Source: a virus
IMG/VR virus record: IMGVR_UViG_3300009431_000983
DNA length: 28,566 nucleotides
Strand: one strand, 5' to 3'
Shown here: positions 17,977 to 19,325 of the stretch, in pieces
How the letters are laid out: every line of letters starts with the position of its first letter
Numbering within the stretch: position 1 is the first letter of the stretch
Translations under genes and position numbers: made by a program
Notes under the pieces: generated by a model
Database searches by the model: none
The model's input: only the letters and a program-made list of their open reading frames with translations
Told to the model about the DNA's origin: nothing

Positions 17977-18422
17977 ACCCCGTAAAATAACCTTCCGCAA
18001 ATGGGGACTCCCCGCCTCCACCCCTGCTGGTCTCCTTTAGGCATTTCAAAGACGATACGATACCGAATCTTCTTCACTGCCAGAACTTCGCAGTCCCGGA
18101 GGCCCTGGTTGATCATCTCTGTAAACATATCTCCGACCACTACTTCCCGGCTGAACAGCCAGGCGTTCGCATGGTGCAAGGCCCCCTTCAGGGTCGAATA
18201 GACCTCCCAGTTCTCGCCCTCTCCGAAAATCCCCCACGGATAGTTGACTTGAAACCCTCCCTCCACACGAGCAACCCGACACACTTTTTGTGAATCCTTA
18301 GTCGCCCGTAAATACACTGTCCCCACCTTCCCCATCTTAGGCGCGATTTCCGCTTCAGTGAAACTGGGTCGATCCCTGTAATAACCCATAGGCGTTTCCC
18401 TGAATCCACCGTTATTCGCCAT
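17967..18422 (-). CDS. hypothetical protein
   Basis: ORF 17967..18749 trimmed to the ATG at 18422 (MANNGGFRE...). This start lies 8 nt upstream of the stop of the preceding gene, with GGAGGA SD 8 nt upstream. The longer N-terminus overlaps the preceding gene entirely. Confidence 0.55.
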   Translation of the reverse strand: MANNGGFRETPMGYYRDRPSFTEAEIAPKMGKVGTVYLRATKDSQKVCRVARVEGGFQVNYPWGIFGEGENWEVYSTLKGALHHANAWLFSREVVVGDMFTEMINQGLRDCEVLAVKKIRYRIVFEMPKGDQQGWRRGVPICGRLFYGVSN

Positions 18423-18831
18423 CGGTGTTGTCCTCCAATACACGGCATTCACCCTTCCACCTGGACTCCTCCCGGTGTCTGGCGCAAAGCCTGCCCCGGA
18501 ACATCTTGTAGCTATCGAACTTCTCCGTCCAGCGATGCCCTGTAACCAGGCACGTTCTAGTCTCCCGAACACCCTCCTTTCGACAATCCGTACAAGGACC
18601 CGGCTTCTTAGGCCTGGAACGGGTACTGCTTGGAGCCTTCTTGTTCGGGTGCACCACCCGTCTACCGTGAATGTATACAGACGCCTTCGTGAACCCACGC
18701 TCCCAAAACTCCTCCAAAAGCCAGTACGCGCTTTGACGTATCTCGGCACGCGTCCCTTGCCTGGTGGCCCAGTGCTCCCGGGGGGACTGTGGGCTCTCCT
18801 TGTAGTCGATGGGTGCCTGGTAAATGGACAT
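18412..18831 (-). CDS. small CxxC...CxxH protein, paralog family member B
   Basis: 139 aa. C-terminus KKPGPCTDCRKEG...CLVTGHRWTEKFDSYKMFRGRLCARHREESRWKGE is paralogous to 18831..19325 and 22991..23311. Confidence 0.6.
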   Translation of the reverse strand: MSIYQAPIDYKESPQSPREHWATRQGTRAEIRQSAYWLLEEFWERGFTKASVYIHGRRVVHPNKKAPSSTRSRPKKPGPCTDCRKEGVRETRTCLVTGHRWTEKFDSYKMFRGRLCARHREESRWKGECRVLEDNTDGE

Positions 18832-19325
18832 TACTCCTCCCCTTCCTCATCCATGAAGGAGTATCCTGACTCTGAACCGGCACTCCCCTCTTTCCAATCC
18901 GACTCTTCGATGTGCTGAGAACAGAGCCGGCCTCGGAACAGGCGATAACTGTTTGTGTTGGTGTTCCACCGCAGCCCTACCAGCATTCGGCCCGGAAGCA
19001 CAGTGTGTTCCGGATCCTCCTTGGCGACACGCTTGCAGTCTGAACACCCGCCCTTGACCTTTTTGGACGCATGAGCGCCCTTGGCAACTTTCTTGCCCGT
19101 AGTGTCTGGAACAACCTCCCCGCCGGCCTCTTCAATGCGCCGCTCCATGTCCTCCGCCAGATTTCCGTCTATCTGCCGCACTAACCTGAGGAAGTAGTTT
19201 GCTCCCTCGAAGTTCTGCTTCGCAAGCGTATGCTTGAAACTCCACACATAGGAGTCAAGGTGCTCTGGATTGGCCTCATCACAGTAAAACTCTGTGGTTG
19301 GTTGAACCGCAGTTTCAGTGGTCAT
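18831..19325 (-). CDS. small CxxC...CxxH protein, paralog family member A
   Basis: 164 aa. C-terminus KKVKGGCSDCKRVAKEDPEHTVLPGRMLVGLRWNTNTNSYRLFRGRLCSQHIEESDWKEG. A promoter module and SD GGAGGACAGAGA are immediately upstream. Confidence 0.6.
   Translation of the reverse strand: MTTETAVQPTTEFYCDEANPEHLDSYVWSFKHTLAKQNFEGANYFLRLVRQIDGNLAEDMERRIEEAGGEVVPDTTGKKVAKGAHASKKVKGGCSDCKRVAKEDPEHTVLPGRMLVGLRWNTNTNSYRLFRGRLCSQHIEESDWKEGSAGSESGYSFMDEEGEE

Follow-up and report, generated by a model that had tools for sequence, protein, structure and literature searches.

A rare CCCH module, predicted to bind zinc, is shared by paralogous proteins of an uncultured phage and an IS1595-family insertion sequence

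Several described systems come close to the subject of this report, a Cys-Cys-Cys-His (CCCH) module that is present in three paralogous proteins, A, B and C, encoded in a 28,566-nucleotide stretch of phage DNA (IMG/VR virus record IMGVR_UViG_3300009431_000983, analyzed at its full length and hereafter called the window). Treble-clef zinc fingers, a structural class reportedly defined by Grishin in 2001, combine a CxxC knuckle with a β-hairpin and draw their third and fourth ligands from the hairpin end and the first turn of the helix. In T4 endonuclease VII (PF02945) and the HNH nucleases, which occur in phages and mobile elements, a structural zinc site likewise combines a CxxC knuckle with two further ligands where the helix following a β-hairpin begins. 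The MH1 domain of SMAD, a small domain with a CCCH zinc site, is read as a degraded, non-catalytic derivative of such a nuclease that binds DNA by means of its β-hairpin. Among insertion sequences (ISs), IS1 encodes InsA, a small zinc-finger accessory protein in which a CxxC...CxxC finger is accompanied by a helix-turn-helix.

The original prediction, made from the letters of the window, held that A, B and C form a novel paralogous family, and this proved to be well founded. The peptide strings that it quoted are found in the translations of three minus-strand open reading frames (ORFs; Table 1), and the proteins match one another in pairwise BLASTP comparisons (A/B 1e-13, A/C 1e-8, B/C 6e-5). 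With all filters off, a search of the six-frame translation of the window by a hidden Markov model (HMM) of the module recovered A, B and C only (E 1e-38 to 1e-32, the next best match being at E 0.2). The window holds exactly three copies of the module, and two further members, P0005 and P0007, are encoded elsewhere. The shared pattern can be written as C-x2-C, 14-19 residues, G-x2-W, x6, Y-x2-[FY]-x-G-x2-C-x2-H, then [GST]-Y-x-[FY]-[LVM]. In the alignment of the five sequences (A, B, C, P0005 and P0007), only eight columns, C, C, G, W, Y, G, C and H, are invariant, and the spacings from G to H are fixed. Half of these columns are C, C, C and H at the spacing of a zinc site, and the additional cysteines vary. 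Conservation of the proposed C-x2-C...C-x2-H core thus extends to all four ligands in five of five sequences; the fear that the pattern might fail to recur in proteins from elsewhere, and so be a chance similarity, is met by P0005 and P0007, in both of which all key residues are kept. Judging by this pattern, the module probably binds zinc.

The family is real and very rare, comprising five sequence clusters in 1.84 billion representative proteins. An exhaustive, single-pass HMMER scan of these proteins with a profile of the three window modules, performed with no word index, brought four proteins beyond A, B and C past E 0.001, namely P0004, P0005, P0006 and P0007. P0005 (388 amino acids (aa), E 3.3e-6) has the C-terminal end ...CAVCRKEGGEVRKGKLVKGYKWHPPSKSYRLYRGYVCREHLTEHFSTYQYLRK, and P0007 (72 aa, E 1.1e-4) reads ...CALCRDYFSDDDPIPSGSLVVGQKWSDYHERYIVFRGYLCDQHLQD...GYRFLEV; BLASTP supports both as members (P0005/C 1e-13, P0007/P0005 3e-10, P0007/A 1e-9). 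P0004 and P0006 were rejected as repeat-rich artefacts, in which the profile is matched eight or nine times over a short part of its length, positions 24-38 at most. When 5.8 billion clusters were searched by a word-indexed method with three- and five-sequence profiles, only C itself and P0007 were returned. Scans of A, B and C against Pfam, PHROGs, NCBIfam and PADLOC yielded nothing at the curated cut-offs, defense families included; the five modules alone received no assignment from Pfam or PHROGs, and neither profile matched a sequence in the Protein Data Bank (PDB; best E 1.1).

At the DNA level, the pattern matches the B module at 18475-18549 and the C module at 23120-23194. Degenerate DNA scans for G-x2-W-x6-Y-x2-[FY]-x-G-x2-C-x2-H were run over IMG/VR, a metagenome collection and 185,579 species genomes, where this loose form found 13, at least 120 and 80 matches, respectively (at least 213 together). 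None of the listed matches is a true member: they score 21 bits or less, where real members reach 85-100, and all of them leave the CxxC knuckle uncovered. A stricter pattern found no match in the metagenome and genome collections, yet it does match the window and related Joint Genome Institute (JGI) loci locally, which indicates that this metagenome collection does not contain the source samples; for this reason, and because the 120 metagenome matches are a lower bound, the negative result of the DNA scans is not exhaustive. No match to B was found by tblastn in cultured phages, and the module was not found within 10 kb of the nearest IMG/VR relatives of the neighboring genes (DUF932, 29-35% identity; glycosyltransferase, 29% identity). 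A single IMG/VR match to protein A (L011) was discarded as a collagen-like repeat protein with a chance WNTNTNSY. The module is absent from the curated libraries searched, no literature search having been made for the module itself, and it defines a new family within a familiar type of domain, the small structural-zinc module, with a distribution restricted to mobile elements, a phage and an IS.

The label of zinc ribbon, under which the module had been predicted, is not supported. A zinc ribbon has two knuckles, each in a β-hairpin turn, that make up a small sheet of three strands; in both of our AlphaFold2 models, the first knuckle runs into a helix, and the second ligand pair is formed by the end of a hairpin strand and the first turn of a helix. 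The model of the A module, built on the five-sequence alignment, has a mean predicted local distance difference test (pLDDT) score of 82.9 and consists, in module numbering, of a strand at residue 8, a helix at 10-18, strands at 28-36 and 41-49, a helix at 51-56 and a strand at 59-61, with ligands C50 and H53 located at the strand end and the start of helix 51-56. In the model of full-length B, the module (residues 80-134) has a pLDDT of 88-94 and shows the same elements (helix 81-86, strands 94-102 and 107-115, helix 117-122, strand 130-134), C116 and H119 lying beside helix 117-122. N-terminal residues 22-60 of B form a moderately confident small domain, and the lysine/arginine (K/R)-rich residues 61-79 are probably a flexible basic linker because the confidence of the model is low there.

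At the level of predicted secondary structure, these two independent predictions give the arrangement of a treble-clef finger, and we predict a treble-clef-like rather than a zinc-ribbon topology. In common with treble-clef fingers, the module has a CxxC knuckle, a β-hairpin, ligands 3 and 4 at the hairpin end and in the first turn of the helix, and one four-ligand site in about 55-65 residues. It differs in adding a short helix right after the knuckle and a third strand after the second helix, and it lacks sequence or profile similarity to any Pfam treble-clef family as well as a three-dimensional match in PDB or BFVD. A Foldseek search of these two databases with the module model gave nothing significant and no match to a nuclease. 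The likeness to treble-clef fingers says little about function, since the class is a fold description and not a homologous family.

Of the two relatives from outside the window, P0005 is a protein with a Glyco_trans_1_2 domain to which the module is fused at the C-terminus. Its contig (L008; 17.5 kb) comes from JGI sample 3300009314, with shorter copies in samples 3300009320 and 3300013120, and the latter two also contain near-identical pieces of the window. The guanine-plus-cytosine (GC) content of 0.51-0.54 and the strong GC skew of the coding strand agree with those of the window, and the tetranucleotide correlation between L008 and the coding strand of the window (r = 0.916) is comparable to that between the two halves of the window (0.897). 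Given the shared samples and the match in GC content, skew and tetranucleotide usage, L008 most likely belongs to the phage of the window or to a sister phage; we infer this kinship, since no contig bridges the two. The GC skew of the L008 coding strand is the mirror image of that of the window plus strand.

P0005 is one of two neighboring Glyco_trans_1_2 paralogs, and it alone carries the module. Both belong to a row of six glycosyltransferase genes at L008 3544..10209 (GT2, Glyco_trans_1_2 twice, GT1, GT2 twice) that adjoins Metallophos, PD-(D/E)XK, Toprim and clamp-loader-like genes, and the run suggests glycosylation of DNA or of virion proteins. At 7453..7704, L008 also encodes an 83-aa CxxC protein that is unrelated to the module and has no relatives among the sequences compared.

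The other relative, P0007, is encoded by an IS. Contigs of about 1.8 kb carrying it were found in five samples (L003-L007). The complete element occupies L003 30..1778 (1749 bp) and has imperfect inverted repeats GGCATTTATATACTTCAC... and ...GTGAGTCAAGTATATATTTGCC, located at 23-51 and 1757-1785, and an 8-bp target duplication, CAATATTT, at 22-29 and 1779-1786. L006 is exactly the element; the left flanks vary among the contigs, and the contigs stop at or diverge beyond the element ends. P0007 is followed by a 106-aa ORF, which has no relatives among the sequences compared, and by a transposase, with a 4-nucleotide (nt) overlap at each junction. The transposase, of 309 aa, contains IS1595 zinc-ribbon and DDE domains (Pfam PF12762, PF12760) and is 35-42% identical to annotated IS1595 transposases; together with the inverted repeats and the 8-bp duplication, these domains place the element in the IS1595 family. 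The DNA composition of the IS is unlike that of the phage (tetranucleotide r = 0.42). By tblastn, P0007 has no counterpart in any plasmid record, and the IS1595-family transposase matched 455.

The module thus also serves as an accessory gene of a recently mobile IS, and a small zinc protein beside a transposase would most simply be a DNA-binding accessory. Here, InsA offers the closest comparison: P0007 is likewise small and Cys-rich and lies upstream of the transposase within the inverted repeats, and the IS1595 family is related to IS1. P0007 differs from InsA in having no helix-turn-helix and no detectable similarity to known IS proteins.

Table 1. Module genes, modules and putative transcription signals of the window
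Feature	Positions	Strand	Details
Gene A	18831..19325	-	164 aa; ORF and translation; P0002
Gene B	18412..18831	-	139 aa; pI 9.7; P0003
Gene C	22991..23311	-	106 aa, counted from the ATG behind GGAGGGA; P0001
151-aa gene, third of the A-B unit	17967..18422	-	start overlaps the end of gene B by 11 nt; same call by JGI
CCCH module of A	18852..19046	-	C94-M158: C94, C97, G117, W120, Y127, G132, C135, H138, then GYSFM
CCCH module of B	18430..18594	-	C80-L134: C80, C83, G98, W101, Y108, G113, C116, H119, then CRVL
CCCH module of C	23087..23242	-	C24-V75: C24, C27, G43, W46, Y53, G58, C61, H64, then YTYV
Promoter-like site of gene A	19371..19400	-	TTGAAA, 18 nt, TATATA; sigma-70-like by consensus match only; 45 nt before the start of A
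Cassette regions	11150-11230, 14588-14670, 16113-16193, 17894-17982, 19320-19410, 24007-24098, 26170-26252	-	repeat alignment
RNA hairpin between the major vault protein (MVP)-like gene and the A promoter	19433..19467	-	stem of about 17 pairs (12 perfect at the core); GCAA loop

Within the window, the module appears in three different settings. A opens with an acidic N-terminal part, probably helical, and continues with a K/R-rich linker (beginning near K78), the module and an acidic tail; B consists of the small N-terminal domain, the disordered basic linker (residues 61-79) and the module; and in C, the module stands between a short N-terminus and an acidic tail rich in Pro and Ala. The N-terminal parts of A and B, as well as the 151-aa protein encoded after B, have no relatives among the sequences compared in this analysis, and the 151-aa protein has no match in the family libraries scanned. 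As had been noted from the sequence, A and B are adjacent and arranged for translational coupling: in TAATG, the last codon of A shares a base with the ATG of B, and GGGGAGGAG lies immediately upstream. Gene A has the Shine-Dalgarno sequence GGAGGA 5 nt ahead of its ATG, and GGAGGGA lies 4 nt ahead of the ATG of gene C; the ORF lister starts C at a TTG at 23326, which gives a longer version. The placement of C beside methyltransferase-like and MVP-like genes was also read correctly, for a 206-aa gene with a weak match to Methyltransf_24 (E 0.018, below threshold) begins 17 nt downstream of C and is followed by the gene for a 947-aa MVP-like protein. The JGI pipeline independently called genes of 164, 139, 151 and 345 aa, A and B included, on contigs from two other samples, and protein C is identical in two other samples, the contigs of which match the window at 99.9-100% identity. 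In the 151-aa region, the ORF lister gives a 260-aa GTG ORF at 17967..18749 on the minus strand that overlaps gene B in a different frame; the true gene is the shorter one of 151 aa, with its start at the ATG at 18422, as called by JGI.

We propose that A, B and C carry an autonomously folding module of about 55-65 residues that would hold one structural zinc through Cys-x2-Cys and Cys-x2-His. It would begin with a zinc knuckle leading into a short helix and a long β-hairpin, the first strand of which would bear the invariant Gly and Trp and the second the Tyr, the aromatic residue and the Gly, and would end with a helix that provides ligands 3 and 4 in its first turn and a short third strand, Y-x-[FY]-[LVM]. 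The module would be a portable unit of mobile elements, joined through a basic disordered linker to different N-terminal parts in A and B, standing nearly alone in C and P0007, and appended at the C-terminal end of the P0005 glycosyltransferase. Its likeliest job would be to position the attached part by binding nucleic acid or some other fixed target, with no catalysis of its own. As a whole, a zinc-stabilized binding or targeting module of mobile elements appears to be the best explanation, with a probability of roughly 40%.

Nucleic acid is tentatively favored as the target because the phage copies have basic cores (C...H net charge: A +4, B +5, C +3, P0005 +8), the K/R-rich linkers ahead of the module in the phage copies appear to be flexible, the neighboring genes act on DNA, and the IS encodes its zinc protein beside a transposase. 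If this is the target, P0005 would be an enzyme tethered to its polymer substrate. Several observations weigh against this interpretation. The core of the IS-borne P0007 is acidic (net -3), and the C-terminal tails of A, B and C are acidic as well, neither of which is typical of simple DNA binders. Conservation is weakly sampled, since the alignment holds only five sequences and four of them are probably from one genome, and the four ligands would lie close together on the evidence of the sequence pattern, on which the geometry of the site rests.

The acidic P0007 and the acidic tails would be easier to accommodate if the module were a protein-binding adaptor that docks its carriers on a conserved host or phage protein involved in replication, transcription or defense, in which case A, B and C could be the host-takeover or anti-defense factors that the original prediction had in mind. 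Treble-clef fingers often mediate protein contacts, several diverged paralogs are present within one phage, and the coupled arrangement of A and B is of a kind that often accompanies complex formation. No partner was identifiable, however, and PADLOC and the other libraries gave no match; the phage cores are basic and the linkers K/R-rich, and the neighboring genes are mostly those of DNA and nucleotide metabolism, with nothing specific to takeover. We regard the adaptor as rather unlikely. Quite unlikely, in our estimate, is descent from a catalytically dead His-Me finger (β-β-α-metal) nuclease that kept its zinc site and binds branched or distorted DNA. The order of elements is that of endonuclease VII, and the two share R-G-x-L-C-x-x-[C/H], with VRGLLCNLCN in the nuclease corresponding to FRGRLCSQH, FRGRLCARH and YRGYVCREH in module proteins. 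The predicted knuckle-hairpin-helix is compatible with a β-β-α core with a zinc site, yet no structural match to any nuclease was obtained. Full-length B weakly matches phrog_307, annotated as endonuclease VII (E 0.0065), but with the modules alone this match drops to E 0.28 and to one member, and none of the five members matches the Pfam Endonuclease_7 and HNH models (PF02945, PF01844) at E up to 10. For a direct comparison, a T4 endonuclease VII sequence that is 99% identical to database protein P0008 was used, and a profile of 13 aligned family members was compared with the module profile by hhalign; the two CxxC knuckles were paired, but at a probability of just 0.7%. Neither sequence nor profile similarity supports membership of the module in the endonuclease VII/His-Me finger families, and we claim no homology to endonuclease VII because the hhalign result is not significant. 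The fourth ligand is His in the module and Cys in the nuclease, and the catalytic His and Asp/Asn (H-x-D-H ... C-x-x-C-N; positions matched by eye) are missing: in place of the HLDHDH block, the end of strand 1 bears G-x-x-W with the invariant Trp, and I, R or L, not the metal-binding Asn, follows the fourth ligand. The C-terminal dimerization domain of endonuclease VII (PF09124) is also absent from the module proteins. The resemblance to SMAD MH1, which is eukaryotic and much larger (about 130 residues), is only an analogy, to be taken as a lead on the module's possible mode of action and not as claimed kinship.

A more ambitious version of the nucleic acid-binding proposal seems improbable to us. 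Under this version, the module would be a new zinc domain for sequence- or modification-specific DNA recognition common to an IS1595 element and a phage that probably has a 2-aminoadenine (Z) genome; the phage paralogs would act as targeting subunits that bring the P0005 glycosyltransferase and the N-termini of A and B to DNA, for example, to hypermodify or read the modified genome, and the IS copy would recognize the element ends. GTATATA is found in both a repeated cassette of the phage (GGTGTATATA) and the IS ends (within GGCATTTATATAC and GTATATATTTGCC), and it could be a shared target or mere coincidence. At the opposite extreme, the shared pattern might have been a chance or low-complexity coincidence in non-coding or mis-called ORFs, as could be imagined for small proteins with no database family and almost nothing similar in very large databases. 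This explanation is refuted by the strong pairwise and profile statistics, the retention of the eight key residues in two independent proteins out of 1.84e9, the Shine-Dalgarno sequences and the placement on the same strand as all other genes, the calling of the same genes by an independent pipeline in other samples, and the confident AlphaFold2 models.

If confirmed, the zinc-stabilized binding module would be a new small zinc-binding domain family in the protein repertoire of mobile elements, marked by its extreme rarity, its sharing by a phage and an IS, and its modular use (alone, behind variable N-termini and in a glycosyltransferase fusion). The fusion and the residence in an IS provide functional leads, which point to a possible role in guiding a sugar transferase to DNA and in controlling transposition. 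At this point, the module is a well-supported orphan domain of guessed function from a single uncultured phage lineage and one IS, and its value is mainly that of an annotated lead.

The transcription context of the module genes is marked by a cassette, GATTGAAA-N18-GGTGTATATA, that is present in seven copies, all on the coding strand and each in the gap ahead of a gene. The exact pattern occurs at four coding-strand sites, compared with 0.00 expected by chance, and related, non-exact copies lie at 14662-14630, 17973-17941 and 24089-24059. The leader of gene A, GGAGGACAGAGATG, is common to three other units. From its consensus match, the cassette is a putative promoter; the copies resemble host sigma-70 promoters, which would fit early or middle expression. 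Three copies extend to a 71-nt repeat with the leader and a ribosome-binding site, GGGGACAGAGA(TG). Because of the cassette repeat there, the start positions annotated for the ORFs at 11169 and 16161 probably lie too far upstream.

A strong RNA hairpin separates the MVP-like gene from the A promoter; the surrounding 61 nt (19420-19480) fold at -41.9 kcal/mol (minimum free energy; z -7.6), and 0 of 200 shuffled sequences fold as well. The hairpin is likely a terminator or transcript end, a role that we infer since it has no U-tract, and as a terminator it would set A, B and the 151-aa gene apart as a transcription unit of their own. This unit likely consists of the promoter, A, B and the 151-aa gene, followed by the next promoter and DUF932; a second likely runs from the promoter at 24.1 kb through a 136-aa gene, C, the 206-aa gene and the MVP-like gene to the hairpin. 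The 290-nt gap before gene C (23312..23601, minus strand) contains no called gene and no cassette copy. In this gap, CCGUACGGG pairs over a long range with CCCGUACGG, closing most of it, and six U follow; the folding z-score of the gap is only -1.9, and it has no Rfam match. Within the spacer of the A promoter, 19378-19396 is 95% complementary over 19 nt to 22962-22980 at the start of the 206-aa gene, and by a rough, uncomputed estimate about 0.1 such pairs would arise in the window by chance. Rfam and tRNA scans of the window gave no match.

The minus strand carries all convincing genes of the window, and in every 1-kb segment the GC skew of the plus strand lies between -0.07 and -0.31. The genes around the module proteins are mostly those of nucleotide and DNA metabolism, including a PurZ-like adenylosuccinate synthetase, a class II ribonucleotide reductase, DNA methylases and proteins resembling 3'-phosphoadenosine 5'-phosphosulfate (PAPS) reductase. 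The adenylosuccinate synthetase homolog (377 aa; 4756..5889, minus strand) is most similar (38% identity, E 4e-47) to genes annotated as PurZ, for 2-aminoadenine synthesis, from Vibrio, Arthrobacter and other phages, and an InPase-domain protein (8831..9454) and the class II ribonucleotide reductase (5969..8791) are encoded nearby; the source phage may have 2-aminoadenine (Z) DNA, as its gene content suggests.

The 947-aa MVP-like protein (19502..22345, minus strand) matches MVP_shoulder at E 1.6e-23 and the vault repeat (Vault_3) at E 1e-6, with no PHROG match and no IMG/VR relatives. The first viral MVPs were reported in gut phages in a 2023 preprint (10.1101/2023.11.10.566534), and this protein would be another example in a different setting. 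At 12257..16161 on the minus strand, two PAPS-reductase-like proteins, of 276 aa and of 470 aa (the latter matching phrog_424), adjoin a 498-aa protein with a weak GHKL ATPase match, and the three may constitute a DNA-modification module.

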